A DNA stretch of 64,000 nucleotides. It comes from an uncultured Ruminococcus sp. GTDB taxonomy: Bacteria; Bacillota; Clostridia; Oscillospirales; CAG-272. Below the pieces are notes generated by a model, which searched no databases, had not been told where the DNA came from, and saw nothing but the letters and a program-made list of their open reading frames with translations. Below, piece by piece: positions 46,186 through 59,413 of the stretch. The stretch lies in the NCBI GenBank assembly GCA_902795355.1, contig CADBKZ010000003.1:37516-101515 (forward strand), written 5' to 3'. How positions within the stretch are numbered: the stretch's first letter is position 1; every line of letters begins with the position of its first letter. Made by a program: the position numbers and the translations under genes.

Positions 46186-48135
46186 TCAAAAGCTGATTTC
46201 AATTGCTTCATGGATGGCGACGCGGTCAACGGTCAGCTTCAAAAGTCCGTTTTCATAGGTAAACGGCAGCTGCTCGTTTTTCGGGAGCAACCGCGCCGAA
46301 ACGGGCTTGCGGCCAAGGCGGTATTCCACCGCAATCGGCCCGACCGGCGGAATTTCATCAAACGTTTTGGTTTTTCCCTCGGCGCGCTTGGCGTTTTTCT
46401 CCGCGCGGTGTTCGCCCGCGGTGTTCAGCAAATGAAGATAGGTTTTTCCGTCCTTCTCCATCAGGGCGACGTCCACATAGCGGGTGCCGTGAACCGAGAG
46501 TTTCCGGTTTGCCCGCGCCAATGCTTCGCCAACAAACGAGCGCAGCTGCGCGGTGCGGTCTCCCTCGTATTCCTTGCCGATGTCGAACGGCGCGGCAACG
46601 ATCCTTCCTTTTCCGTAGGATACCTCGATCAGGCTCGGCACATCCGGCTCCGTCACCTTTTGCGGCGGCGGGTTGGCAACGCTCGGGTCACCCACGCTCC
46701 GAATCGGATTCATAACATTCAGAACGGTTGCGGACGTGGTCAGTTTGCAGAACGGCTGCATCATCAGCGCGCGCAGTCCGCCGCCACGGATTACGGCGAA
46801 ATCGTCGGTTTCCATTGCCGAAATTCCGAGTTCCTCGCGGAAAGCGGAAACCGTTTTCATGCCCGAAAGGAACAAAGTTCCCCCGTTTTGGGCATACGCA
46901 AGCAGCTGCGCGCGAACATCCGGCTCCAATTCCGCGCATTCGGAAAGCGCGAGCATGGAAAACGAATCGAGATCGTTCAGGCGGGACGGCATCAGCACTT
47001 CCACAGACGCCTGATTATCGAGCAAAGCGCAGGTCAGGCCGCGCAAACTCGTCAGATAGTCGCAATGCGGGCCGAAAACAGGCTCGCGCCCATGGTAATA
47101 CGACGCTTTGGAATACACCACGCCGACCTCGTGGATCGGGCTTGCCCGATGGCAGAACGACCGCCGCTCGCGGCAAAACTCCGCAACTTCGCGCAGCACG
47201 GGAACCACCCAATCGTTTTGGAGCGTTTTTTTCGCTTCCTGCATGTGGTAAACCTGAAAACCGCCGCCCAGCATGATAACGGCCGCCGCTTCCTGTTTGA
47301 GCTGTTCGGCGGGCTTGACATAATGCACGGGATAGCTGAACCCCCAAGCCATCAGATCCCACGGGCGGCCGAAGGAAGCCACCGCGCGGGCGTCAACGCG
47401 CGCGTGGTCCACCGCGTCGTTCGGGGAAAGATCGCCCGAAATAAAGTCGGTAATGGCAACATCTTCCGGCATTTGAAGCGTGTTGCACCAATTGGACGTA
47501 ATCTCAAAATTCGGCGCGACCTCTTTCACCGCCCGAATATACCGGCCGACGTAGCGCGCAAACTCTTCCCGCAGAAACTGCCGGAAAGCGGGAAAATCGG
47601 GGTCGTTCGGCTGGGGAATCTCTTTTCCGTAGGCTTTTTTCGCCCCCTCGGAATAATCGGGGTTCACGCACCAGCAATCGCCGTCGATCCACGCGCCGTC
47701 CAACCCGTAATCCGCGGCGATCTCGCGCAGCTGCGGAATCAGGAGTTTTTCCTCGTAGTCCCCGAAGAAGGACATAAACCGCGGGTCCGGCGCGCCGTTC
47801 TTTTGCACAATTGCCCATTCGGGGTGCTTTGCGGCCTGATAGCTGTCCCAAACGCCGCTGTAATGCGCGAAAAGCGGAATTTGATACTCTTTTGTAATCT
47901 TTCGCCAAGCCGCCAGAATATCGCTTGCAATCTCCGGCGCGGGTTGGCCGATTTTGGTGGGATAACTGCTGTACCCGGGGTGCCCCTTGCTATCCACCTG
48001 AATAAAATCGGGCTTCACTTCCCGACAAATTTCATGAACCAACGACGCGTCAAACGCTTCCCCGATGCCCGTGGTTCGCTCGTTGGCGTGCATATCGAAA
48101 TGCAGGCCGAAAAAACAATCCTTGCGCGATTTCAT
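46186..48135 (-). CDS. Putative glycoside hydrolase (alpha-L-fucosidase/GHL6-like barrel plus trimerisation-type domain)
   Basis: GLHFDMH, QVDSKGHPGYSSYPT, DGAWIDGDCW. Confidence 0.7.
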   Translation of the reverse strand: MKSRKDCFFGLHFDMHANERTTGIGEAFDASLVHEICREVKPDFIQVDSKGHPGYSSYPTKIGQPAPEIASDILAAWRKITKEYQIPLFAHYSGVWDSYQAAKHPEWAIVQKNGAPDPRFMSFFGDYEEKLLIPQLREIAADYGLDGAWIDGDCWCVNPDYSEGAKKAYGKEIPQPNDPDFPAFRQFLREEFARYVGRYIRAVKEVAPNFEITSNWCNTLQMPEDVAITDFISGDLSPNDAVDHARVDARAVASFGRPWDLMAWGFSYPVHYVKPAEQLKQEAAAVIMLGGGFQVYHMQEAKKTLQNDWVVPVLREVAEFCRERRSFCHRASPIHEVGVVYSKASYYHGREPVFGPHCDYLTSLRGLTCALLDNQASVEVLMPSRLNDLDSFSMLALSECAELEPDVRAQLLAYAQNGGTLFLSGMKTVSAFREELGISAMETDDFAVIRGGGLRALMMQPFCKLTTSATVLNVMNPIRSVGDPSVANPPPQKVTEPDVPSLIEVSYGKGRIVAAPFDIGKEYEGDRTAQLRSFVGEALARANRKLSVHGTRYVDVALMEKDGKTYLHLLNTAGEHRAEKNAKRAEGKTKTFDEIPPVGPIAVEYRLGRKPVSARLLPKNEQLPFTYENGLLKLTVDRVAIHEAIEISF

Positions 48136-48294
48136 ATCACTTTCCCCCATACGGAATCCCCTCCGGAAACCGACTCCCGACGGCTTTTGAATCGGACATT
48201 TCAATTATAAAAGAAATCTTGTTTTTTGTCAAGCGGAAAATGAAAAAAAGGAACTTTTTGCTAACCGAAATTCCTTTTTTGTGAAAAGGGGTCA

Positions 48295-48334
48295 AAAAAA
48301 ACGGTCGCCCCGCCGGATTTTCCGGCGGGGCGAC
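48295..48334 (-). terminator. Original ppdK terminator, displaced by the element
   Basis: GC-rich stem 48304-48317/48321-48334 with a T7 tract, 25 bp after the displaced ppdK stop. Confidence 0.8.
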
Positions 48335-48358
48335 TACTTTTTGCTTTTATCGGTTCAA

Positions 48359-48379
48359 TCAGCCTTTCAGGGCTGCCTG
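48359..48379 (-). other. Displaced native ppdK 3' end / attachment site
   Basis: CAG GCA GCC CTG AAA GGC TGA (QAALKG*) shares the CAGGC core with ppdK at 55780-55784. Confidence 0.8.
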
Positions 48380-49492
48380 TGAAGTACTCCCCGTTGAAAT
48401 GCGTTTTTACCAACTTCTTCAACTTCCGTGAAGTACTGATTATGAAAAAAAGTAGGTAACACCTCATTATCCTGAATGCTTTTTACATCCAACGATAATG
48501 TATTTTTCCTTCCGACTATCGAACAAAAAGTTTGGTGATAATTCTCGTCGTCAAGTGTAAGATACCAACTGAAGCGCCTTCCGTCTTCCTCGGCAACGAT
48601 TGCCGCGACAAGCTCTTCGATAATCTCTTTTGGAACTTTTCCTTCTTTAAACGTGGTCAGCTGATTCAGCCTTGACTCTATTCTATTTAGATCGATAATT
48701 GTTCTTGTTTCAATTTTATCATTATCTGCGACAGAAGTTAAGTCTTTTTGAATTGAAGCTATCTCTTTCTCACATTTCTCTTTTAAAACCAAATATTCGT
48801 CTTTCCCTATCTCTCCATCTGCTCTCATACAGATAAGATTATTCAGTCTGCCCTTTGCTCTTTCAAGTTTTCCTTCTAACCCTGCAATCTCTTCTTTGGA
48901 AACAGCAGTGTCTGAAACATAATTCCTGTTAACCATATCGTATGCTTGTAAAACGGCATCTTTCTTGTCAGTCCATATCCTACTAAAAATCGATGAAGCC
49001 ATAACATCAAACTTCCAATCGCAAACCATGTGACCATCACAGTATCCTTCCGGATCAAGACCGTTTTCTATACGCTTCGTTCGTGTGCCGTTATTGACCG
49101 CATTATAGCATCTATATCCATAAGACCAAGTTCCATCTTTCCGTTGATGCCATCTGTTCTTACGGAATTTTGAGCCGCAGACACATCTTAATTTGTGCAA
49201 AAAAGGATCGTCAGTTTGTTTTTTACCAATATTACGTGTTCTGCCATTCAGGTTTGTATATTTCAGCGATTTACTTCTTCTGAGTTCGTTACAATAATTC
49301 CAAAGCTCCTCAGACACGATTGGCTCAAAATCTCCTTTGATATAGAGATATGAGTTCTCATCGAGGTTTTTGATCCTCTTTTGATCAAGGTAATTATTGC
49401 AGAATGATTTCAAATAGCATTTATATCCTTTATAAGTTGCATTTCTTAAAATCCGACTGACTTTAGAGCAAGACCAATTCACATTTCCTATC
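48367..49492 (-). pseudogene. Large serine recombinase, 5'-truncated (catalytic domain missing)
   Basis: WSCSKVSRILRNATYKG, EPIVSEELW, zinc ribbon CVCG...YRC...C and coiled coil; no N-terminal resolvase domain or RBS. Confidence 0.85.
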
Positions 49493-50068
49493 CCGCTTGA
49501 TCGCCTGAATGCTTTCGTTCTCCAAGCTGTCTTTGACCGCGTTCAATTTTTCAAACAGGTCGCCCGAAAACTTGTCGAGCGTTACGGGACGGTCGATTTT
49601 CACAATCTCCGCGGACTGCGTTCCGTCCAAGAGCTTCAAAGCGTTTGCGAGGTATTCGATGTCGATGTTCTGTTGTATCACGTCCTCGATGCCGAAATTC
49701 TTTTGCCCGATCTTGATCACTCTTCCGTGGAAGCCGTTGTTGTAGTCGATCAGACCGTTATCCTTGACGTCTTTCAGCCCGAAAAGGCTTTCGACTCGTT
49801 CTTTTTCTTTGCTTGCCGTTTTTGTGTATTGCTTTTTAGCGAAAATAAATCGCACGTTTTCAAACAGGATCGAATATAAAATCCCGTCCTGCGTGGGCAT
49901 GAACATCACGACTGCGGCAAGCCCCATTATGACTGCTATCGCCCACTTCCCTGCGGTAATGCTGACAAAGATAATTGCAAACACGATCAGCGCGACGATG
50001 ATGTCCTTCATCGAATAGCATTTCCACACGGTGTTTTTGACTTTGATTTTTTTCGGAATGATCCTCAT
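49463..50068 (-). pseudogene. N-terminal fragment of a PrgI/VirB4-type conjugation ATPase
   Basis: MRIIPKK, two TM helices, IVKIDRP; cut at ~49490 before any Walker motif; follows a VirB6-like gene. Confidence 0.6.
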
Positions 50069-50092
50069 TTTATTCCTCTTTTTTAAAAATAT

Positions 50093-50133
50093 TGTACGAA
50101 ACCGTTGACAAATTCGTACATAAATGATATAAT
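50093..50133 (+). promoter_or_regulatory. TA operon promoter with operator inverted repeat
   Basis: TTGACA (50105) -17- TATAAT (50128); TGTACGAA/TTCGTACA flank the -35. Confidence 0.8.
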
Positions 50134-50168
50134 AATAGTGCATAATAAGGCAAAGGAGGTGCCATGCC

Positions 50169-50384
50169 ATGTCCATTACTGCAACTGAGCTGAAAGAAAA
50201 TTTGAGTAAATACCTTCTTCTTTCAGTTACACAGGACATTTTCATCACAAAAAACGGAAAGGTGATTTCCAAGCTCACTAACCCTTTTCAGAACAGAGTC
50301 GATATTGCAAAATCCTTATTTGGCTCAGTTCCGGATACCGTCTCTTTAGAAGAAACGAAACGTGAGAGGATTGAAAATCTATGA
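50169..50384 (+). CDS. Phd/YefM-family antitoxin
   Basis: ITATELKENLSKYL...IFITKNGK. Confidence 0.9.
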   Translation: MSITATELKENLSKYLLLSVTQDIFITKNGKVISKLTNPFQNRVDIAKSLFGSVPDTVSLEETKRERIENL

Positions 50385-50803
50385 GAGCTTTGATTGACAC
50401 CTGCGTAATCATTGACGCGCTTCAGGACAGAAAGCCATTCTCTGATGACAGCAAGCAGATTTTCCTTCATGCAGCAAACAACATTTTTGGCGGCTTTATC
50501 ACAGCAAAATCCGTAACCGACATTTATTATCTAATCCACAAAACAACTCATGACAATGTAAAAACGAGAGAAATTATCAATAAGTTGTTTTCCTTGTTTG
50601 ACATTCTGGATACCACAGGAATGGATTGTAAAAAAGCAATCCTTTCGGATACTCCTGATTATGAAGACGCGGTGATGATTGAATCTGCTTTGCGCGATGA
50701 ACTTGACTGTATCGTCACCAGAAATGAACGTGATTATGGAAAATCCCCTGTAAAAATCTATTCCCCGAAGCAATTTATTGAACTGCTTTCCCAAGATCTG
50801 TGA
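50381..50803 (+). CDS. PIN-domain (VapC-like) toxin
   Basis: LIDTCVIID...DYEDAV...IVTRNERDY; ATGA-coupled to the antitoxin. Confidence 0.9.
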   Translation: MRALIDTCVIIDALQDRKPFSDDSKQIFLHAANNIFGGFITAKSVTDIYYLIHKTTHDNVKTREIINKLFSLFDILDTTGMDCKKAILSDTPDYEDAVMIESALRDELDCIVTRNERDYGKSPVKIYSPKQFIELLSQDL

Positions 50804-50834
50804 TCTTTGCCCCTCGATTTCGAGGGGCTTTCTT

Positions 50835-52016
50835 TTATACAGTCAGACCTTCTTTATCCGTGCTTTCGCTTTTCTCCTCAACGTATTTTTCATTACTGTC
50901 ATTTTTGCTCCCGCCATCGCCCTTTCCTTTATGATGATGTGCCGCGTGAGACGCGCCACGGATCAGTTTGGTCGCCGCACCGATTGTCATCGCGCTGGCA
51001 ATTCTTCCGCCGTAGAACGCGCTCCGTAAAAAGCCTCCGCCTGCGTGCATATCGTCTGCCTGACCGAACAGTCTCGCAAACAGATGTTGCCCCGCCGGGA
51101 TCATCATTGCGCCGCCGATAATCATAAAGATTAAAAACAGCCCATTCCCGAACCCGGATATACCGTCAATCTTCATCTTCGTTATGATCGGCAGCAAAAG
51201 AATAAAGACGTTGACTGAGAACACTGCGCCGTAAGCAAGCACGATCTTCGTGATGAACGATTCTCTCCATACCTTAAACCGTGCGCCGTCGTCAAGCGGC
51301 AACGTTGACATTGAAACGGGCATGACGATATACAAGAAAATGATCTCGTACACGCGCTTTGCCAGATTCAAGACCGCCACAAGAAGCGAAATCATCACGC
51401 CGACAGACGCAACAAGCGACGGAACGTATAAAAATTTGTCGGGGTTAATCATGCCGGTATTCTGCCAATCAACAGGCCAGATACCGAACGCCGCCGTGCT
51501 GTAATCGCCCATAATTTCTCTGACGGTCAAGGTTGATACGTCCGCTTCCGCGATGGAATAGCCGTTGATCCAACCGTCGCCAACGCAAGCATTGAAAAGC
51601 GCGTTCGAGAGTTTCGTTGTGTTTTCGATCTGGAAGATCCTCGACACCAGAACGAGAACCGAGTTGGAAATCAGAATTCCCAAGACGACCACCGCGAGCA
51701 TTGCCATCGTACCGAGAAGCGCCAAAAAGAACTTCCCGACGATCGTGGAAAGATTGCGGTTGTTCGCGATCATATTCTTGATGATCGCCGCTATCGTGAA
51801 AATAGCCGTCAGCCCTACCGCCAAGATAAACACGCACCAGAAGATAGTCCCGACCGACGTTTGCGCCGCCAAGTGTTCGATGATGTTGACTTTCTGACCG
51901 TGGTACGTCACGTCCGTTACGCCTGCGACTGCCGAGAAGATCTCCATCAAGCCGTCACACAATCGCAAGAGCCATAGAAACAGCTGCAATACGATTTCCT
52001 GTAAAAAAATAATCAT
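50835..52016 (-). CDS. ICE transmembrane protein (VirB6-like)
   Basis: Multi-TM, KRVYEIIFLY...PLDDGARFKVWRE; lies between pilin-like and VirB4-like genes. Confidence 0.7.
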   Translation of the reverse strand: MIIFLQEIVLQLFLWLLRLCDGLMEIFSAVAGVTDVTYHGQKVNIIEHLAAQTSVGTIFWCVFILAVGLTAIFTIAAIIKNMIANNRNLSTIVGKFFLALLGTMAMLAVVVLGILISNSVLVLVSRIFQIENTTKLSNALFNACVGDGWINGYSIAEADVSTLTVREIMGDYSTAAFGIWPVDWQNTGMINPDKFLYVPSLVASVGVMISLLVAVLNLAKRVYEIIFLYIVMPVSMSTLPLDDGARFKVWRESFITKIVLAYGAVFSVNVFILLLPIITKMKIDGISGFGNGLFLIFMIIGGAMMIPAGQHLFARLFGQADDMHAGGGFLRSAFYGGRIASAMTIGAATKLIRGASHAAHHHKGKGDGGSKNDSNEKYVEEKSESTDKEGLTV

Positions 52017-52032
52017 TTTCCTGTTCTCTCCT

Positions 52033-52875
52033 CTATACCGCCCAAACGCTCAATCCTTTTATGAGAAGCGGTAAACCGACCGCAAAAACGAACATGACAA
52101 GAATGCCGATGACAAGGTGTTTCACCATTTCCTTTGCGTTGATTTTCTCTTCGTTCTTTTTCGCGATTGCAACGCGGATGCCGATATATGCGCCCCAGAC
52201 GATCACGACCGACGCCATACCGATAACGAGATAGATCCAGACGGAATCCACCAGTTCGGAAAGCTTTTCCGTGATTTGCCCGAAGTTGTCCCGCATTCCT
52301 TTCTGTTGCCGCATAAGACCGACGATTTCTTCGTCCGTCATCTCCGACGCGTTCAACGTGTTATAGCAAGCAAACTGCGGCGGCAGGTATGCCGTATTTC
52401 CGTCCGGATCGGTTACGTAAAAAACAAACGTGAAATCGAGACTTGTGTTCTTTTCTAAAATGCCCACGATAGCCGTTCGGAAGATCCTTCCTTCCGGCGC
52501 TTCCCGCGAAGTGCTGCCGACAACGTTCAGGATCGCGACGTTCTGCTCCGCAAACGCGTTCATATAATCGCCGTGAACGTTGAATTTTTCCATGTATTTC
52601 TTCGGAAAGATTGCCGTTCCGTAAGTACATCCGCTGTCATAAACGGTATTCGGAACAAAAAACATTGCCACGATATACCGACCTCTTGTTTCGTTTTCCC
52701 CTTTTCGGTACCCGAAGAAAAACGACTGTTCTATGATTTGTTCGGCTTGCGTTTGATTTTCTTCCGCTTCCGCCGCATAAGCCGTAGTCGGAACTCCAAA
52801 CGCAAACCCGAAGAATAGCGTCAGCGCCATTATGACGCCGAAAAGCGAATACTTTCTGTTTTGTGTTTGTTCCAT
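52033..52875 (-). CDS. Secreted domain fused to a C-terminal pilin-like (VirB2-type) domain
   Basis: Signal peptide AYAA; C-terminus clearly paralogous to 52948-53250. Confidence 0.7.
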   Translation of the reverse strand: MEQTQNRKYSLFGVIMALTLFFGFAFGVPTTAYAAEAEENQTQAEQIIEQSFFFGYRKGENETRGRYIVAMFFVPNTVYDSGCTYGTAIFPKKYMEKFNVHGDYMNAFAEQNVAILNVVGSTSREAPEGRIFRTAIVGILEKNTSLDFTFVFYVTDPDGNTAYLPPQFACYNTLNASEMTDEEIVGLMRQQKGMRDNFGQITEKLSELVDSVWIYLVIGMASVVIVWGAYIGIRVAIAKKNEEKINAKEMVKHLVIGILVMFVFAVGLPLLIKGLSVWAV

Positions 52876-52947
52876 TTTTACCTCTTTTCTAAAAGCCATA
52901 AGGCGGCAGGTTTCCCCACCGCCTTACCCTTTTTTGACGCTTCTTGA

Positions 52948-53250
52948 TTAAGCGCCGATACCCACCCAAGCGGAAAGACCGTTGATGAGAAGCGGTGCGC
53001 CCATTGCGACGACGAAGATGATCACGATACCGATGATGAGGTTCTTCACCATATCACGGGCGTTGATCTTCTCTTCGTTGCGGTGCGCGATGGCGATTTT
53101 AATACCGACATACGCGCCCCAGATCACGACGACTGCCGCAAGCGCCATAACGATGTAAATCCAAAAACTGTCCATCAGGGATTTCAGGCTCGTTACGATC
53201 TGTTCAAGACTTCCGTTGAGAGTGGTTTCTGCCAAAAGATTACTGTTCAT
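52948..53250 (-). CDS. Pilin-like conjugal transfer protein (VirB2-type)
   Basis: 100 aa, two TM helices around NEEKINARDMVKNLIIG; GGAGG RBS. Confidence 0.7.
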   Translation of the reverse strand: MNSNLLAETTLNGSLEQIVTSLKSLMDSFWIYIVMALAAVVVIWGAYVGIKIAIAHRNEEKINARDMVKNLIIGIVIIFVVAMGAPLLINGLSAWVGIGA

Positions 53251-53276
53251 TCTGTTTCACCTCCTTCCTTTTCCGA

Positions 53277-54140
53277 TTAAGCACCTGCTCCACCCCAAGC
53301 GGAAAGACCGTTGATGAAGAGCGGCGCACCCATAGCAACGACAAAGATAATCACAATGCCGATGATGAGGTTCTTGACCATATCTATCACATATTTCACT
53401 TGTTCATCCGTCAAACAAGTATGTAATGGCAAAGTTATCTCGTTAGCAAAATGTGCATAAGCATTGGGATAAGCATTGATGTCGAAGCCAAGCTTCTTAT
53501 ATGCTGTATGCATAGGCAATGGCTTATAATGAACATTACAAGCTATTCCCCTCTCTGCCATTTTTACGATTATCTCTCCACGTTGGTCATAAGAAATATC
53601 AGGAATTCTCGTTATATATAAATGCCCGGACGACTGATGATTTTCGTTATAATGCGGTATTGTTTCAACACCCAGTGGTTTAAACGCATCATCGTATCTT
53701 TCTATTATTTCTTTTCTACGTTTAAGCATTTCGGGGTACCGGACAAACTGTCCAAGACCGATAGCAGCCATAATGTCTGTCATATCCGAATTGTTTACGA
53801 ACCACTCGTTTCTTTTCGTTATTGCCGCCTTATAATGGACGTTGTATAATTCTTGCGGATACCACACCTCATCGTAATATTTTTCCATATCGTCCATATC
53901 GGCAATCGGGTATGGCAGTACGAGAATCAGAGAGTTGTTTGAAGTGCCATAATCTCGTTGCGCCATTTTAATTACCGACGCTACCATAATATCGAACTCG
54001 CCGTTCCTGCCAACGTAGAACTCAACGTACTCTTTTGTCTGGATCAATTCTTTTACAATATCTTCTACCTGCTCTTCGATAAAGCGAAAGTTTTCTACTT
54101 CCCGGTGACCGATAAAAGAAACTCTGTATGTATCAAGCAA
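53277..54140 (-). pseudogene. Tripartite in-frame chimera: SLOG-like N-terminus, DegT/DnrJ aminotransferase C-terminus, pilin C-terminus
   Basis: SFIGHR...KRNEWFVNNSD | MTDIMAAIGLGQ...ITLPLH | MVKNLIIGIVIIF. Confidence 0.8.
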
Positions 54141-54172
54141 TTTATGACCTCCATAGGTGATAAAAACAAAAA

Positions 54173-54211
54173 GGATTTGTTCATCTATTGGTGTAATAGA
54201 TGAACAAATCC
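54173..54211. terminator. 17-bp perfect hairpin (terminator and candidate recombination site)
   Basis: GGATTTGTTCATCTATT-GGTGT-AATAGATGAACAAATCC with T tracts on both strands. Confidence 0.8.
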
Positions 54212-54336
54212 CGTTTTTTAACCATCAAAAAATAAAGATAATGAAAATTTCTCCTTCACTTTCCTTCTTGAACATTGATTTTTCGGTTTCAATATGATAT
54301 AATCTTGGTAGTGATAATCCCCTATTACACCAATAG
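54185..54336. repeat. 15-bp inverted repeat pair flanking a promoter
   Basis: CTATTGGTGTAATAG (54185-54199) and CTATTACACCAATAG (54322-54336). Confidence 0.85.
54275..54303 (+). promoter_or_regulatory. Sigma-A promoter within the candidate invertible segment
   Basis: TTGATT-17-TATAAT with extended TG. Confidence 0.7.
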
Positions 54337-54345
54337 GTGGTAATA

Positions 54346-55275
54346 TTAAAGCAGCTTTCCAAGCCGATTCATCATCTCTTTTTTGTGTTCCATTAAAGAG
54401 TGAACGTAACGATTCAACGTTACTGTCGGAGACTTGTGTCCAAGAATATCGGATAACGTTTTAACATCCATACCGCACTCCAACGCGCTTGTTGCGAAAG
54501 TGTGCCGAAGTGAGTGAAATCCCCTGTGGGGGATTTTTAGTTTTCTCTGCAACAAATCGAAACTGCGTTGATACGATCTGACAGACAGCGGGTTTGCATT
54601 TTTTGAAACGACAAACTCCGACCTGCTTTTCTTTCTCGCTTCCTTGATAAACGGTAATAATTGCCGTGGCAAAGGGATCACTCTCCGCGACGAGGAGGTT
54701 TTCGGCGTATCCTCAAACCTTACGTAATGACCGAACCGATCTTTCCCATCGTGACAGGATTTTGAAACAGTCAGAATCCCTTTCTGCAAGTCAATATCTT
54801 CCCACTTCAAAGCAAGCAGTTCGCCAACACGAAGTCCGGTATAAAGGCAGAGCAATATTCCGAACATCTTGTCTTTTTTACTGTTCAATACCGCTTGCTC
54901 GATCTGCTTTTGTTCCTGTGTCGTAAAGCAATTTACGGCTTTTTCTTGTGCTTTCGGGCGCTTGATTCTGTCTGCCGTAAACTCTTTCACGTAGCCAAGA
55001 TTAAACGCTGTTCTGAGCGAATTCTGAACGACGTTTATAATGCCGCCGACTGAATTAGCCGACAACCCTTTCCCCGTTTTCAAATTCCCGGACTGCAATA
55101 GTTCGGTTATGTAATGTTGCAGAACACCCGGCGTTATCTCGTCTAACTCGTAATCGCCAAGTCTGGGTATAATATGTTGCTTAATGATCTCCGAATACCT
55201 GCTGAACGTTCTTGTTTTCGCCGTCGGCTCGATATAATTCTCAAGCCATTCTTTTAACCATTCGTGATACTTCAT
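54346..55275 (-). CDS. Tyrosine recombinase/integrase
   Basis: SAM-like N-terminus; catalytic set GLRVGE, TPKT, HSLRH, LGH, RYVH intact. Confidence 0.93.
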   Translation of the reverse strand: MKYHEWLKEWLENYIEPTAKTRTFSRYSEIIKQHIIPRLGDYELDEITPGVLQHYITELLQSGNLKTGKGLSANSVGGIINVVQNSLRTAFNLGYVKEFTADRIKRPKAQEKAVNCFTTQEQKQIEQAVLNSKKDKMFGILLCLYTGLRVGELLALKWEDIDLQKGILTVSKSCHDGKDRFGHYVRFEDTPKTSSSRRVIPLPRQLLPFIKEARKKSRSEFVVSKNANPLSVRSYQRSFDLLQRKLKIPHRGFHSLRHTFATSALECGMDVKTLSDILGHKSPTVTLNRYVHSLMEHKKEMMNRLGKLL

Positions 55276-55379
55276 TTTTGTTCTCCTATTCCCTTTCTTT
55301 TTTTATAAAAAAATGCTGTACGAAAAAACTTCATACAGCATTAATAAAAAATATATGTAATTGTAAATATCCGAACGCC

Positions 55380-55535
55380 TTATTTGCCGTCCGTTTTCAT
55401 TTTTGATTTTAAGATTTTGACATCAAACTCATATTGCTCTTTTGTTAAAAGTTTTTTCTCAAAAAAGATCCTTAACGTTTCTAACTGTTTTTCAAGCAAA
55501 TATTGATTGTTTATAATCTTATCTTCGCTTTTCAT
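55380..55535 (-). CDS. Small SHOCT-like protein (51 aa)
   Basis: Hand translation MKSEDK...QLETLRIFFEKKLLTKEQYEFDV...; GAGG RBS and own TATAAT. Confidence 0.6.
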   Translation of the reverse strand: MKSEDKIINNQYLLEKQLETLRIFFEKKLLTKEQYEFDVKILKSKMKTDGK

Positions 55536-55590
55536 AGTATTCCTCACTTAAATATTATATCATATAGAAACATAAAAGTAAAGTAAAGGA

Positions 55591-55621
55591 AAGCCGCCAT
55601 ATCAATCCGATATGGCGGCTT
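55591..55621 (-). terminator. Element-borne terminator now serving ppdK
   Basis: AAGCCGCCATATC/GATATGGCGGCTT stem with a T-rich tail on the minus strand. Confidence 0.8.
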
Positions 55622-55627
55622 AGTGTT

Positions 55628-55780
55628 TCATAGATATACATCAACAAATATTTCTTCCCATTGAGATTCTCGCGTTAGGACATTCAAATATTTGCGACGA
55701 TACTGTTTGGCTTCTTCAAAGGAAATCGAGAACGACCAAAACGGTTTATTATTTGTTCTCCTCGCTTTGTTTAATAGCAG
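55628..55780 (-). other. Detached 50-codon C-terminal segment of the serine recombinase
   Basis: Open frame LLLNKARR...FEEAKQYRRK...QWEEIFVDVYL* in frame with the recombinase across the CAGGC core. Confidence 0.7.
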
Positions 55781-58397
55781 CCTGCGCCGCGGCCAATCTT
55801 GCAATCGGAACGCGGTAGGGCGAGCAGGAAACGTAATCCAAACCGATTTCATGGCAGAACTCAACCGAGGTCGGGTCGCCGCCGTGCTCACCGCAGATAC
55901 CGCAGGAGAGTCCGGGACGGGCTTCACGGCCGAGCGTAACCGCCATCTTCATCAGCTTGCCGACGCCGATCTGGTCGAGCTTGGCAAACGGATCGTTTTC
56001 GTAGATCTTCGCGTCGTAGTACGCGCCGAGGAACTTGCCCGCGTCGTCGCGGCTGAAACCGAACGTCATCTGGGTCAGGTCGTTGGTGCCGAAGCAGAAG
56101 AACTCCGCCTCTTTCGCGATCTCATCCGCGGTCAGAGCGGCGCGCGGAATCTCGATCATGGTGCCAACCTGATATTTCAGGTTGCTCTTGGCGGCGGCGA
56201 TTTCCTCGTCGGCCACCTTTACCACAACGTTCTTGACGTATTTCAGTTCCTTGACCTCGCCAACCAGCGGAATCATGATCTCCGGCTCCACATTCCAATC
56301 GGGATGCGCCTTCTTGGTGTTGATGGCCGCGCGAATAACCGCTCTGGTTTGCATAGCGGCGATTTCAGGATAGGTGACGGCCAGACGGCAGCCGCGATGG
56401 CCCATCATCGGGTTGAATTCATGGAGACCCGCGATGATCGCCTTGATCTTTTCAACCGGCTTGTTCTGCGCCTTGGCCAGAAGCTCGATGTCCTCTTCGG
56501 TGGTGGGAACAAATTCATGGAGCGGCGGATCGAGAAAACGGATTACCACGGGATAGCCTTCGAGCGCTTCATAGAGCTTCTCGAAGTCGCCCTGCTGCAT
56601 GGGCAGGATCTTGGCCAGAGCCGCTTCTCTCTCCTCAACGGTGTCGGAGCAGATCATCTCGCGGAACGCGGCGATGCGGTCCGGCTCGAAGAACATATGC
56701 TCGGTGCGGCAAAGGCCGATTCCCTCGGCGCCCAGCTCGCGGGCTTTCTTCGCGTCGCGGGGCGTGTCGGCGTTGGTGCGCACTTTGAGCTTGCGGTATT
56801 TATCCGCCCAGCCCATGATGCGGCCGAAGTTGCCGCCGATGGTGGCGTCAACGGTTGCGATGGCCTCGCCGTAAATGTTACCGGTGGAGCCGTCGATGGA
56901 GATCACGTCGCCCTCGTGGAAGGTCTTGCCCGCCAGCGTGAACTTCTTGTTCTCTTCATCCATTACAATGTCGCCGCATCCCGAAACGCAGCAGGTACCC
57001 ATACCGCGGGCAACCACGGCCGCGTGCGAGGTCATACCGCCGCGAACGGTCAGAATGCCCTGCGCCGCTTTCATGCCGGTAATGTCCTCGGGCGAGGTTT
57101 CGAGACGGACGAGGATCACCTTCTTGCCGGCTTTCTTCCAAGCCTCGGCATCGTCGGCGGTGAACACGATCTGCCCGCAGGCAGCCCCGGGAGAAGCTCC
57201 GAGACCGCGGCCGAGCGGCTTCGCGGCTTTGAGAGCCTTTGCGTCGAACTGCGGGTGCAGGAGCGTATCAAGGTTGCGGGGATCAATCATCAGAACCGCT
57301 TCCTTCTCGGTCCGCATGCCCTCGTCAACAAGGTCGCAGGCAATCTGGAGCGCGGCCTGCGCGGTTCTCTTGCCGTTGCGGCATTGGAGCATGTAGAGCT
57401 TGCCGTTCTCAACGGTGAACTCCATATCCTGCATGTCGCGGTAGCGGTTTTCGAGAATGCCGCAAACTTCCACGAACTGTTTGTAAGCGTCGGGGAACTG
57501 CTTCTCCATCTGCGCGATGGGCATCGGGGTGCGAACGCCTGCAACAACGTCCTCGCCCTGCGCGTTGACCAAGAACTCGCCCATCAGCTTCTTTTCGCCG
57601 GTGGCGGGGTCACGGGTGAACGCAACGCCGGTGCCGGAATTGTTATTCAGGTTGCCGAACACCATGGGCATAACGTTAACGGCGGTGCCCCAAGAGTACG
57701 GAATGTCGTTATCGCGGCGGTATACGTTGGCGCGGGGGTTGTCCCAAGAGCGGAACACCGCGCGGATCGCTTCGTAGAGCTGTTCTTTCGGATCGCTCGG
57801 GAAATCCTTGCCGAGCTGTTTCTTATATTCGGCCTTGAACTCGATGGCAAGCTCTTTGAGGTCGGCGGCGGTGAGTTCCACGTCGAACTTCACGCCCTTC
57901 TTCTCTTTCATCGCGTCAATCAGCTGCTCGAAATACTTCTTGCCCACTTCCATAACCACATCCGAGAACATCTGGATGAAGCGGCGGTAGGAGTCGTAAA
58001 CGAAACGCTCGAACGCGGGATCGGGGTTGCCCTTGATCATTGCGGCAACAACCTCGTCGTTCAAACCGAGGTTCAGAATGGTGTCCATCATTCCGGGCAT
58101 GGAAGCGCGCGCGCCGGAACGAACCGAAACGAGCAGCGGGTTTTTCAGGTCGCCGAACTTCTTGCCGTTGATCTCCTCCATTTTCTCAACGTTCTTCATG
58201 ATCTCCGCCATGATTTCATCGTTGATCTTTCTGCCGTCCTCGTAATACTGCGTGCAGGCCTCGGTGGAAATCGTAAAGCCCTGCGGAACGGGCAGACCGA
58301 TCTTGGTCATTTCCGCGAGGTTTGCGCCCTTGCCGCCGAGCAGTTCGCGCATGTTGGCGTCGCCTTCGGTAAAGAGATAGCAATACTTCTTTGCCAT
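55749..58397 (-). CDS. ppdK: Pyruvate, phosphate dikinase
   Basis: LLGGKGANLAEM, GGMTSHAAVVARG, GTNDLTQ, CGEHGG. Confidence 0.98.
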   Translation of the reverse strand: MAKKYCYLFTEGDANMRELLGGKGANLAEMTKIGLPVPQGFTISTEACTQYYEDGRKINDEIMAEIMKNVEKMEEINGKKFGDLKNPLLVSVRSGARASMPGMMDTILNLGLNDEVVAAMIKGNPDPAFERFVYDSYRRFIQMFSDVVMEVGKKYFEQLIDAMKEKKGVKFDVELTAADLKELAIEFKAEYKKQLGKDFPSDPKEQLYEAIRAVFRSWDNPRANVYRRDNDIPYSWGTAVNVMPMVFGNLNNNSGTGVAFTRDPATGEKKLMGEFLVNAQGEDVVAGVRTPMPIAQMEKQFPDAYKQFVEVCGILENRYRDMQDMEFTVENGKLYMLQCRNGKRTAQAALQIACDLVDEGMRTEKEAVLMIDPRNLDTLLHPQFDAKALKAAKPLGRGLGASPGAACGQIVFTADDAEAWKKAGKKVILVRLETSPEDITGMKAAQGILTVRGGMTSHAAVVARGMGTCCVSGCGDIVMDEENKKFTLAGKTFHEGDVISIDGSTGNIYGEAIATVDATIGGNFGRIMGWADKYRKLKVRTNADTPRDAKKARELGAEGIGLCRTEHMFFEPDRIAAFREMICSDTVEEREAALAKILPMQQGDFEKLYEALEGYPVVIRFLDPPLHEFVPTTEEDIELLAKAQNKPVEKIKAIIAGLHEFNPMMGHRGCRLAVTYPEIAAMQTRAVIRAAINTKKAHPDWNVEPEIMIPLVGEVKELKYVKNVVVKVADEEIAAAKSNLKYQVGTMIEIPRAALTADEIAKEAEFFCFGTNDLTQMTFGFSRDDAGKFLGAYYDAKIYENDPFAKLDQIGVGKLMKMAVTLGREARPGLSCGICGEHGGDPTSVEFCHEIGLDYVSCSPYRVPIARLAAAQAAIKQSEENK

Positions 58398-58756
58398 GTT
58401 TGGTAATCCTCCAAAATTTGTTTTTTCTTTGACATGATACTCCAAAGGCACACCGAAAAGACGTTCCATCGTTGTTCCATGTCACATACGTTTGATATTA
58501 TACCATATTTTTTGTTTTTTTTCCATACTTTTACAGGCAGAAACCGCCCTCAAAAATGTAAACATTCTGTGAACGGCAAAAAAACCCCCGTTTCCGTTTG
58601 ACAAAACGGCATTTTTATAGTATAATAATGGAGCAATGTCGGATACCGTCCGTGCGGCGGATCTCGTCGGCTCCCCGTTTCCGAACGGGGGGGCGCGGCG
58701 CGGTCGGGCGCCTTTTCGCGTATCCCCCGCTTTTCGGAAGGAGTTTTTCCCTTTTT

Positions 58757-59413
58757 ATGGCTGATATTTTTGATTTGTTCCGCAAAATCGCAAAAAAAGA
58801 ACCCGCAAACCGAGAACCCGTTTCATGGCTGATCGTGGGGCTTGGGAACACGGGCAAGCAGTATGAAAACACCCGCCACAACGCGGGCTTTCTCGCGTTG
58901 GACCGATTTGCCGCCGCCGTTGGGGCGAAGATTGACCGCGCCAAATTCCATTCTCTGGCGGGCGAGGCGGAAGTTGACGGGCGGCGCGTTTTGCTGATCA
59001 AACCGCAAACGCTTATGAACGCCTCGGGACTTGCGGTGCAGGAAGCGGCCGATTTTTACCGGATTCCCCCCGAAAATGTTCTGGTACTCTCGGACGATAT
59101 TTCCCTGCCCGCGGGTCATCTGCGCGTTCGCAGAAAAGGGAGCGCGGGCGGGCATAACGGCCTGAAAGACATTATCGCCTGCCTCGGTTCCGAGGATTTC
59201 CCGCGCATCCGCATTGGCATCGGTGCGAAGCCGAACCCCGAATACGACCTTGCCGCGTGGGTGCTTTCCCCGTTTTCCGAAACCGACCGTAAGCGTTTGG
59301 AAGTCGCTTTTCCGGCGGTTGAGCGGGGCGTCCGCATGATTCTGGACGGGGACATTGACGGCGCGATGCAGGTCTGCAACTCCGTAAAACCCGAGGAGAG
59401 CGAAAACGCATGA
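58757..59413 (+). CDS. pth: Peptidyl-tRNA hydrolase
   Basis: IVGLGN...TRHNAGF, KPQTLMNASG, GGHNGLK. Confidence 0.96.
   Translation: MADIFDLFRKIAKKEPANREPVSWLIVGLGNTGKQYENTRHNAGFLALDRFAAAVGAKIDRAKFHSLAGEAEVDGRRVLLIKPQTLMNASGLAVQEAADFYRIPPENVLVLSDDISLPAGHLRVRRKGSAGGHNGLKDIIACLGSEDFPRIRIGIGAKPNPEYDLAAWVLSPFSETDRKRLEVAFPAVERGVRMILDGDIDGAMQVCNSVKPEESENA

Follow-up and report, generated by a model that had tools for sequence, protein, structure and literature searches.

The window, a stretch of 64,000 nucleotides (nt) from contig CADBKZ010000003.1 of an uncultured Ruminococcus sp., contains a tyrosine recombinase gene, int, and beyond its 3′ end two short inverted sites with a predicted promoter between them. 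The question raised by this locus is whether the recombinase (Int) turns the promoter towards and away from the genes on the far side of the sites, referred to here as the cargo, and what such a switch would accomplish in this genome. The observations described below make it very probable that the locus is a promoter inverton, in which the adjacent Int flips a promoter segment of 122 base pairs (bp) by means of two lox-like sites. The orientation in which the promoter faces int is called OFF, and the one in which it faces the cargo is called ON. The switch appears intact; in this genome, what it controls is probably vestigial.

The two sites are 15-bp dyads composed of CTATT and AATAG arms around an asymmetric 5-nt core. 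They form an inverted repeat that matches at 15 of 15 positions, are 137 bp apart from start to start, both lie 3′ of int, and enclose a short non-coding segment, as is seen in promoter invertons. No other exact copy of CTATTGGTGTAATAG is present in the window, where 0.02 matches with two or fewer mismatches were expected (100 shuffles), and the same two sites are the only matches with one mismatch or fewer in the entire genome (2.16 Mb). An earlier reading of the sequence, the original prediction, had described dyad sites in opposite orientation with the cores GGTGT and ACACC, a segment of about 120 bp between them and a distance of 9 bp from the right site to the end of the recombinase gene. 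All of these features were found again: the segment measures 122 bp and, according to the coordinates of the open reading frame (ORF), 9 bp separate the end of the right site (54336) from the int stop codon (54346-54348).

The promoter predicted within the segment points outwards. In the assembled, OFF state it is antisense to int and directed into the 3′ end of the gene, so that its TTGATT and TATAAT boxes, their 17-nt spacing and their present direction away from the minus-strand cargo are as originally described. Inversion in silico leaves 18 nt between the end of the -10 box and the cargo-side site, and 77 nt between the box and the TTG codon at 54140, which supports the proposal that inversion aims the promoter at the GGAGG/TTG start of the first cargo gene. 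An outward-facing promoter inside the segment is predicted not only in the window but in 43 of 43 switches of the family described next, each of which has a near-consensus TTGnnn-17-(TGn)TATAAT-like box about 20-30 nt from one of the sites.

Homologues of Int were collected together with their flanks from three sources: a genome collection, genomes of the same genus and metagenome contigs. The genome collection returned 53 loci, of which 41 with an Int identity of at least 49% were kept and 12 with 37% or less were dropped. With the window included, an inverted pair of CTATT-N5-AATAG-like sites was found within about 300 bp 3′ of int at 28 of 42 loci, two of the 42 having no downstream DNA. 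The pair was also present at 8 of 14 testable loci of the same-genus genomes, some of which overlap with the genome-collection set. Among the metagenome contigs, 18 loci with at least 56% identity were kept and 15 weaker ones dropped; the pair was found in 12 of the 18, and three of the six loci lacking it had 139 bp or less of downstream DNA. Once five identical duplicates are removed, 43 distinct switches are left, in which the two sites are separated by 111-176 bp. Site pairs, which the original prediction had named as something to look for beside homologous recombinases, are thus a repeated feature of these loci.

Inversion by a tyrosine recombinase requires matching asymmetric spacers in inverted orientation, as in Cre/lox-type sites. 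The 5-nt core is of 28 kinds across the loci, and the cores of the two partners are identical in 43 of 43 switches, although this agreement is partly built in, as pairs were picked with three or fewer mismatches in 15 positions. A scan blind to the core, in which sites were defined by their arms alone, was applied to 39 loci with at least 250 bp of downstream DNA. Two or more sites were found in 22 of them, and in 20 of the 22 the cores are exactly reverse-complementary (the chance being 1/1024 for each). Cores matching in direct orientation only were found in none of the 22, and two loci, L037 and L038, fit neither pattern.

Both orientations of the segment occur in nature. The promoter points towards int in 39 of the 43 switches and away from it, towards the cargo, in four (L024, L064, L065 and L106). 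Two of these four ON switches, L024 and L065, are clear flips of close relatives. Flipped, the segment of L024 has an identity of 82% to that of L029, against 67% unflipped, and the segment of L065 is 81-85% identical to those of L034, L035 and L036 when flipped and 54-58% when unflipped. Furthermore, contigs from four public sequencing runs were compared with positions 53700-55000 of the window, the comparison being at the level of contigs. A 331-nt contig (depth 5) in runs X2 and X3 joins 54199 to 54321 on opposite strands through 15 shared letters, and it agrees with the window without a mismatch over 54008-54199 and 54211-54321. Such a joint is exactly the predicted ON junction, which consists of the promoter, the proximal inner arm, the core, the cargo-side outer arm and the cargo leader. 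The flipped relatives, the conserved matched cores and this junction in a near-identical allele together support the invertibility that had been claimed for the locus. The census of 39 to 4 fits an OFF-biased switch, with the qualification that assemblies report majority states and that related genomes are not independent.

The arms of the sites have a further property. In the assembled state, the arms of the cargo-side site extend into a perfect 17-bp hairpin at 54173-54211. T runs flank this hairpin on both strands, and on the minus strand it is followed by the U tract TTTTTGTTTTT, which would make the two a terminator-like element located downstream of int and upstream of the cargo. Inversion in silico lowers the number of perfect pairs in the stem from 17 to 5 and weakens the local fold from -28.6 to -15.2 kcal/mol. 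The hairpin with its T tract, and its shortening from 17 to about 5 bp upon inversion, had both been proposed from the sequence, and both proposals hold.

For comparison among the loci, the four half-sites of each locus were written in the direction reading towards the core. They fall into two classes: TGTWCRC-CTATT is the long arm, and the short arm is A-rich with CAY-CTATT at its end. The outer arm on the cargo side has the long consensus. In the OFF loci, the inner arm on the cargo side has it as well, and the cargo-side site is therefore an extended palindrome in these loci. Behind an A-rich stretch, the int-side arms have only about CAY-CTATT in common. As inversion predicts, the ON loci carry the long inner arm at the int side. 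Of the 39 OFF loci, 32 have a cargo-side inner arm that is closer to the long consensus than their int-side inner arm is. The OFF arrangement thus places both long arms at the cargo-side site, where they form a palindrome of 12-17 bp; in the ON arrangement each site combines a long with a short arm, and no such palindrome is left.

The distal palindrome is maintained by paired changes. In 20 OFF loci, 88.5% of the cells are paired over 16 bp, with changes on both sides at 11 pairs; these values were reached by none of 500 shuffles, and controls slid along the sequence are paired in 31-47% of cells. The int-proximal site, when treated as an extended palindrome in the same way, is indistinguishable from the shuffles (67.8% paired, reached by 51 of 500). 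In the OFF loci, a stretch of 51 nt surrounding the distal site folds with a median of -17.7 kcal/mol in the native form and -8.6 kcal/mol after the flip in silico. The native form is more stable by over 2 kcal/mol in 29 of the 39 loci and less stable in four, and a stem of at least 10 bp is predicted in 33 of 39 native against 9 of 39 flipped forms. These comparisons support the view that the orientation-dependent hairpin, with its compensatory changes, is a trait of the family.

If Int is the invertase and if the promoter and the hairpin act as such, the working of the switch can be described in some detail. Int would bind the two lox-like sites, in which inverted arms (CTATT and flanking bases) surround an asymmetric core identical in the partners, exchange strands within the core, and so flip the 122-bp segment. 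Int is most likely the enzyme responsible, judging from its adjacency to the sites and the conservation of Int and sites together. In the OFF state the near-consensus promoter would fire antisense into the 3′ end of int. Transcripts of int, probably starting from a promoter at 55582..55554, would meet the palindrome and the U tract and be ended there, leaving the cargo insulated. In the ON state the promoter would read through the 5-bp dyad at the cargo-side site to the GGAGG/TTG start at 54140. At the same time the palindrome would be split, its inner arm being moved to the int side, the hairpin would fall to the 5-bp site arms, and antisense transcription into int would stop. It is quite possible, although we propose it tentatively, that the sites themselves encode the second half of the switch, a single strand exchange moving the promoter, dismantling the insulator hairpin and ending the antisense transcription of int. 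The uneven arrangement of the arms, together with antisense control, could explain why 39 of the 43 switches, if truly biased, were assembled OFF. The int gene and its switch would then be a portable cassette, placed in gut Clostridia before varied cargo such as surface proteins, pilins, helicases and BREX genes.

The recombinase is intact, as originally stated: it has 309 amino acids (aa) and both of its domains score above cutoff. For the catalytic domain PF00589 (Phage_integrase), matched at residues 120-297, the score is 101.8 bits (cutoff 27.1), and for the N-terminal SAM-like domain PF14659, matched at residues 4-59, it is 58.7 bits (cutoff 22.6). The residues R149, K192, H254, R257, H280 and Y290 are all present, in the contexts TGLR149, PK192T, H254-SL-R257, LGH280 and NRY290, and from general knowledge of the tyrosine recombinase family we take them to be the catalytic ones. 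In the alignment with the solved integrase 6en0, the R, HxxR, H and Y motifs have the same residues in both proteins. This structure, 6emy and 6emz are the best match among solved structures to the catalytic domain of Int (E 6e-15, residues 139-305). The proteins, named 'Int protein' in these entries, are distantly related to Int and resemble it in the catalytic domain only, and the likeness is uninformative on the reaction carried out here. The NCBIfam models of tyrosine-type DNA invertases, NF007370 and NF007371, give Int 27.2 bits against cutoffs of 221-222. Among the Xer equivalogs, Int obtains 107.6 bits against 220 with XerA and 79.6 against 335 with XerC, and is thus assigned to none of XerC, XerD and XerA. 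The Int clade has one copy in this genome; of 77 further genomes of the genus, 17 contain it at E <= 1e-40.

The switch promoter has a second, similar copy in the window, 307 nt upstream of int, with an ORF of 55 aa (55380..55547) in between. This copy is probably the promoter of int itself. The likeness between the int promoter and the switch promoter is confined to the window, as it exceeded shuffled controls in 0 of 19 other loci. An exact 35-nt stretch of the switch promoter had no match in metagenome_contigs. Within int, the antisense strand carries a GC-rich hairpin of 9 bp with a T run behind it (54516-54537, plus strand); it is located about 210 nt downstream of the expected start of the switch promoter, and from its sequence it could be a terminator of the antisense RNA. 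An Rfam scan of 53000-56000 gave no family near its gathering score. The coordinates of the switch and of the cargo are collected in the table.

Table. Features of the switch, its recombinase gene and the cargo, in coordinates of the window.
Feature	Position	Strand	Basis or remark
Tyrosine recombinase Int, 309 aa, presumed invertase	54346..55275	-	PF00589, PF14659
Int-proximal recombination site, CTATT-ACACC-AATAG (read on the plus strand)	54322..54336	.	reverse complement of CTATTGGTGTAATAG; relatives have a site at the corresponding place
Cargo-side (distal) recombination site, CTATT-GGTGT-AATAG, CTATTGGTGTAATAG	54185..54199	.	exact sequence match
Invertible segment, 122 bp between the sites	54200..54321	.	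X2/X3 contig has the opposite orientation relative to the left flank
Predicted segment promoter, TTGATT-17-TATAAT, with extended -10 TG (TGaTATAAT)	54275..54303	+	sequence match
Second copy of the switch promoter, 26/32 identical	55551..55582	-	ahead of the 55-aa ORF and int
OFF-state hairpin, perfect Watson-Crick stem of 17 bp from the arms of the distal site, with the 5-nt core as loop	54173..54211	-	
U tract after the hairpin	54162..54172	-	sequence
Ribosome-binding site GGAGG with the TTG start codon of the first cargo gene	54138..54152	-	start aligns with Met-1 of full-length homologues
YpsA/SLOG-like gene, cut after codon 120	53781..54140	-	alignment; full-length relatives about 155 aa
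DegT/PseC-type aminotransferase, 3′ fragment, in-frame fusion	53376..53780	-	PF01041, profile positions 213-359 of 360
End of the chimeric ORF, a duplicate of the 3′ tail of the neighbouring pilin-like gene 52948..53250	53277..53375	-	
Two pilin-like genes (weak)	52948..53250, 52033..52899	-	conjugative-element remnants, co-oriented
MMCAP2_0566-family transfer protein	50835..52016	-	177.9 bits against a cutoff of 90

The start proposed for the cargo is confirmed by homologues (see the table); its GGAGG, at 54148-54152 on the minus strand, stands 7 nt before the TTG. The reading frame that begins there, 53277-54140 on the minus strand, is open for 287 codons and is a chimera of three parts, a YpsA-like part, a DegT/PseC-type part and the tail of a pilin gene. 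The DegT part corresponds to the last 40% of an aminotransferase and obtains 108 bits with TIGR03588 against a cutoff of 423, and the stretch 53275-53384, which includes the tail, is 84% identical to 52946-53055. In at least nine related loci the first cargo gene encodes a conserved protein of about 155 aa, for which Pfam and NCBIfam contain no family. A protein language model places it closest to an Atlas cluster (score 0.97) in which 14% of the members carry PF06908 (YpsA). The YpsA-like copy in the window follows this family for 120 codons. In X2/X3, a contig agrees with the window as far as 53781 and differs from it beyond, and its loose letters translate on the minus strand in frame like the intact relatives. 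Because this near-identical allele continues in frame, the cargo gene of the window is a derived fusion; the allele found in the ON state in X2/X3 probably keeps an intact YpsA-like gene, as far as its sequence extends.

The genes behind the fusion fare no better. They lie, like the switch, in an island of low GC content (40-51% against about 58% around it), which is about 7.5 kb long, at roughly 48.2-55.7 kb, and adjoins a gene of the size of pyruvate phosphate dikinase. The island contains a decayed conjugative element. Its VirB4 is present as an N-terminal fragment only (profile positions 2-203 of 894), and because of this truncation the conjugation apparatus cannot be complete. The original prediction had suggested phase variation of surface glycan or conjugation genes, and neither suggestion is supported: the DegT homologue is a 3′ fragment fused to a truncated YpsA-like gene, and the downstream type IV secretion (T4SS) genes belong to the decayed element. 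With a truncated fusion as its first cargo gene, followed by remnants of a conjugative element, the switch probably has a vestigial output, and since the cargo is decayed the switch is of limited biological consequence in this genome. Transcription in the ON state could, from the sequence, extend into the pilin-like and transfer-protein genes (50835..53250); no convincing minus-strand terminator was found between 54140 and 50835. In relatives the cargo is diverse, as is typical of phase-variable loci. It includes BspA-type leucine-rich repeat (LRR), Listeria-Bacteroides repeat, cohesin/dockerin, MucBP, camelysin-like and prepilin-type (type IV pilin) proteins, and also helicases (HA-domain and SNF2), BrxA, a radical SAM enzyme and an MFS transporter.

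Further features of the island were noted. A large serine recombinase gene without the catalytic N-domain is located at 48367..49482. The VirB4 fragment (49463..50278) overlaps with a PIN/Phd toxin-antitoxin pair, the predicted promoter of which is a perfect TTGACA-17-TATAAT (50105-50133). A strong bidirectional terminator is predicted at 48303-48335.

Several observations weigh against the account given above. With respect to orientation, the evidence from the public runs is thin. The ON junction is one short contig at depth 5; X2 and X3, whose pieces and depths are identical, look like one data set filed twice and are counted as one, which comes from another study than X1. The contig covers the cargo-side joint, and the int-side junction lies outside its coverage. 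The X2/X3 allele also differs from the window, to the left of 53781 and at 54200-54210. An unexplained loose end of 28 nt, without a site, replaces 54200-54210 in the ON contig; it may reflect a longer segment in that allele or a chimeric contig end. Run X1, the probable source run, gives one contig in the assembled orientation only, which neither shows nor excludes flipping in this strain, because contigs drop rare variants. The gaps in coverage of X2/X3 at 54322-54397 and of X5 at 54272-54623 carry no weight. Among the relatives, the ON call of L064 comes from the strand of the promoter and the positions of the arms only, and the identity of its segment to those of L030 and L066 is 0.61-0.63 flipped and 0.65 unflipped.

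The site pair and the terminator-like hairpin were not found at every locus. Despite sufficient downstream DNA, no site pair was found at L025, where Int is 74% identical, at L027, L028, L038, L043, L054, L057, L059, L060, L113, L119 and L120, and at six same-genus loci. A wider search for inverted repeats (at least 12 nt long, with gaps of 1200 or less, on either side of int) at 12 homologue loci lacking a clear pair gave nothing convincing. A stem of at least 10 bp combined with at least four T in the next 8 nt is found in only 13 of the 39 OFF loci, the window included, and a classical intrinsic terminator is therefore not universal in the family. In the four ON loci, flipping in silico did not produce a strong hairpin. 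The palindrome could have its role in protein binding or DNA structure rather than in RNA.

These points have to be considered together with other explanations of the locus. The family might be invertible and the copy in the window a functional fossil, in which the promoter mainly controls int by antisense or convergent transcription and a flip has no useful effect because the cargo is broken. The fusion of the first cargo gene after codon 120 to a DegT 3′ fragment and the pilin-gene tail would agree with this, as would the in-frame continuation of the near-identical X2/X3 allele like that of intact relatives, the fragmentary VirB4, the truncated serine recombinase, the source contig being in the OFF orientation only, and the assembly of 39 of 43 switches in that state. 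A fossil is nevertheless somewhat unlikely. Int is full length and keeps all of its motifs, both 15-bp sites and the 17-bp palindrome are perfect, which is unexpected after long disuse, and the chimeric ORF is still open over its whole length behind a good ribosome-binding site.

It is far less probable that the sites are attachment sites of the adjacent mobile element, or relics of such sites, and that the recombinase is the integrase of the element and no invertase. Int does lie at the edge of the low-GC island with its conjugation-gene remnants, its closest solved structures (6en0/6emy/6emz) are integrases, and the cargo beside homologues is highly variable, with homology often breaking at the int-proximal site. 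The attachment sites of an integrative element would be direct repeats at its ends with int inside, but the sites here are inverted, 137 bp apart and on the same side of int, enclose only a promoter and have no further copy in the genome with one mismatch or fewer. No tRNA gene was found in 47000-59000, nor any other classical integration target nearby. The same compact layout occurs beside homologues without neighbouring conjugation-gene families (among those scanned), and the segment has been seen flipped, not excised. Still more improbable is the explanation by static palindromic operators or terminators that serve a dimeric regulator without any recombination, the contig joint being an artefact. 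Each site is itself a dyad, as is typical of operators, and a single joint of low depth could arise by template switching at a 15-bp inverted repeat. But static operators have no need for asymmetric cores that vary between loci and match in inverted orientation within a locus, as in 20 of 22 loci of the core-blind scan. Nor would the segments of close relatives be 81-85% identical when flipped against 54-58% when unflipped, or the inner arms be exchanged in the ON loci. A 15-bp repeat is also, by estimate, shorter than the typical word length of an assembler, so that the joint should need reads spanning it. A promoter inverton worked by Int thus accounts best for the sites, their cores and the flipped relatives.

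Comparison with known systems places the inverton among familiar switches. In fimS of E. coli a short invertible segment carrying the promoter of the downstream genes is flipped by the tyrosine recombinases FimB and FimE. The recombinase gene lies directly upstream and is co-oriented with the cargo, its 3′ end abuts the switch, and the promoter faces it in the OFF state. The repeats of fimS are 9 bp long and inverted, accessory proteins are needed, and the two recombinases differ in directionality. The locus in the window resembles fimS in having its promoter inside the segment and a recombinase gene that abuts the segment and is faced by the promoter in the OFF state. Unlike fimS, it has one recombinase, lox-like dyad sites with locus-specific cores, and a cargo-side site that is itself a long palindrome in one orientation only. 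The sites of Cre (loxP) and Flp (FRT) consist of two inverted arms around a short asymmetric spacer, which must match between partners and whose orientation decides between inversion and excision. The sites described here are built in the same simple way, with inverted arms around a short asymmetric core matched in the partners. They differ in that their arms share only about 8-12 conserved bases, that the variable core has 5 nt (the overlap region in the family is perhaps 7 nt, T-N5-A), and that there are two classes of arms, one site being a perfect palindrome in one orientation only.

RecV of C. difficile is a tyrosine-type recombinase. In this species, likewise of the Clostridia, the cwpV switch is inverted by site-specific recombination through RecV, and an intrinsic terminator is proposed to arise in the OFF transcript and not in the ON transcript; the promoter lies upstream of the 195-bp invertible region, outside it, and the recombinase is encoded elsewhere (PMC2784873). 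The predicted terminator in the window, a hairpin with a U tract, is likewise present in one orientation only in silico. In contrast to cwpV, the locus has its promoter within the segment and its recombinase gene next to it, and the arms of a recombination site make up the hairpin. The locus thus works partly alike and is of another type.

A 2025 survey of invertons describes an inverton group 139, associated with invertase group 35. Its 33 members include 32 from Clostridia, a tyrosine-type recombinase/integrase adjoins nearly every one, and flipping was observed in culture (PMC11892184). The two examples of this group named there have about 206 and 228 bp between the repeats, against 111-176 bp in the switches described here. 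The survey also describes invertible promoters of Bacteroides that have an adjacent tyrosine-type invertase, not itself open to regulation by the promoter, and that control surface structures (PMC11892184). The present switches differ from those of Bacteroides in phylum, repeat motifs and promoter type, and the invertase models give about 27 bits. A full-text literature search found no description of the site motif, of a palindrome embedded in a site or of an inverton from Christensenellaceae, the repeat motifs of PMC11892184, possibly of the same family, being uncompared. The general kind of system is already well known, and the locus adds a further case; the site-encoded, orientation-dependent palindrome may be new, and is the only feature of which this may be said.

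In gut bacteria, phase variation is known to arise mainly through promoter invertons, and to our knowledge almost all mechanistic work on invertons has been done on Bacteroides, E. coli and C. difficile. The present comparison defines a compact and readily recognised family of switches in poorly studied Clostridia of the gut and the rumen, each with one recombinase, two lox-like sites of simple consensus, a core particular to the locus and a conserved near-consensus promoter. It provides a sequence rule by which such switches and their cargo can be located in metagenomes, and a small set of orthogonal pairs of sites and cores as candidate recombination tools. An orientation-dependent palindrome made from the arms of a site is a design feature that combines the principles of fimS and cwpV.

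A few individual loci of the family deviate from the common pattern. The contigs of L026, L046, L083, L103, L017, L105, L116 and L117 end 0-139 bp past int, and that of L017 has a site-like sequence, with two mismatches to the 15-mer of the window, four bases from its end. Such ends would fit assembly breaks caused by mixed orientations, and fragmentary assemblies could look alike. L064 has a third, orphan site with a GTTAT core at +18, between int and its AGTGC pair, and L039 has a second copy of the proximal site at +44. These extra sites hint at past shuffling of switch modules. In L037, the int-proximal site at +16 and the distal site at +165 from the end of int have cores that differ at two positions (AGTGC and AGCAC), a difference that should block strand exchange. 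By its sequence L037 may be a naturally locked switch; both of its core alleles are present elsewhere as matched pairs, in L110 and L109.

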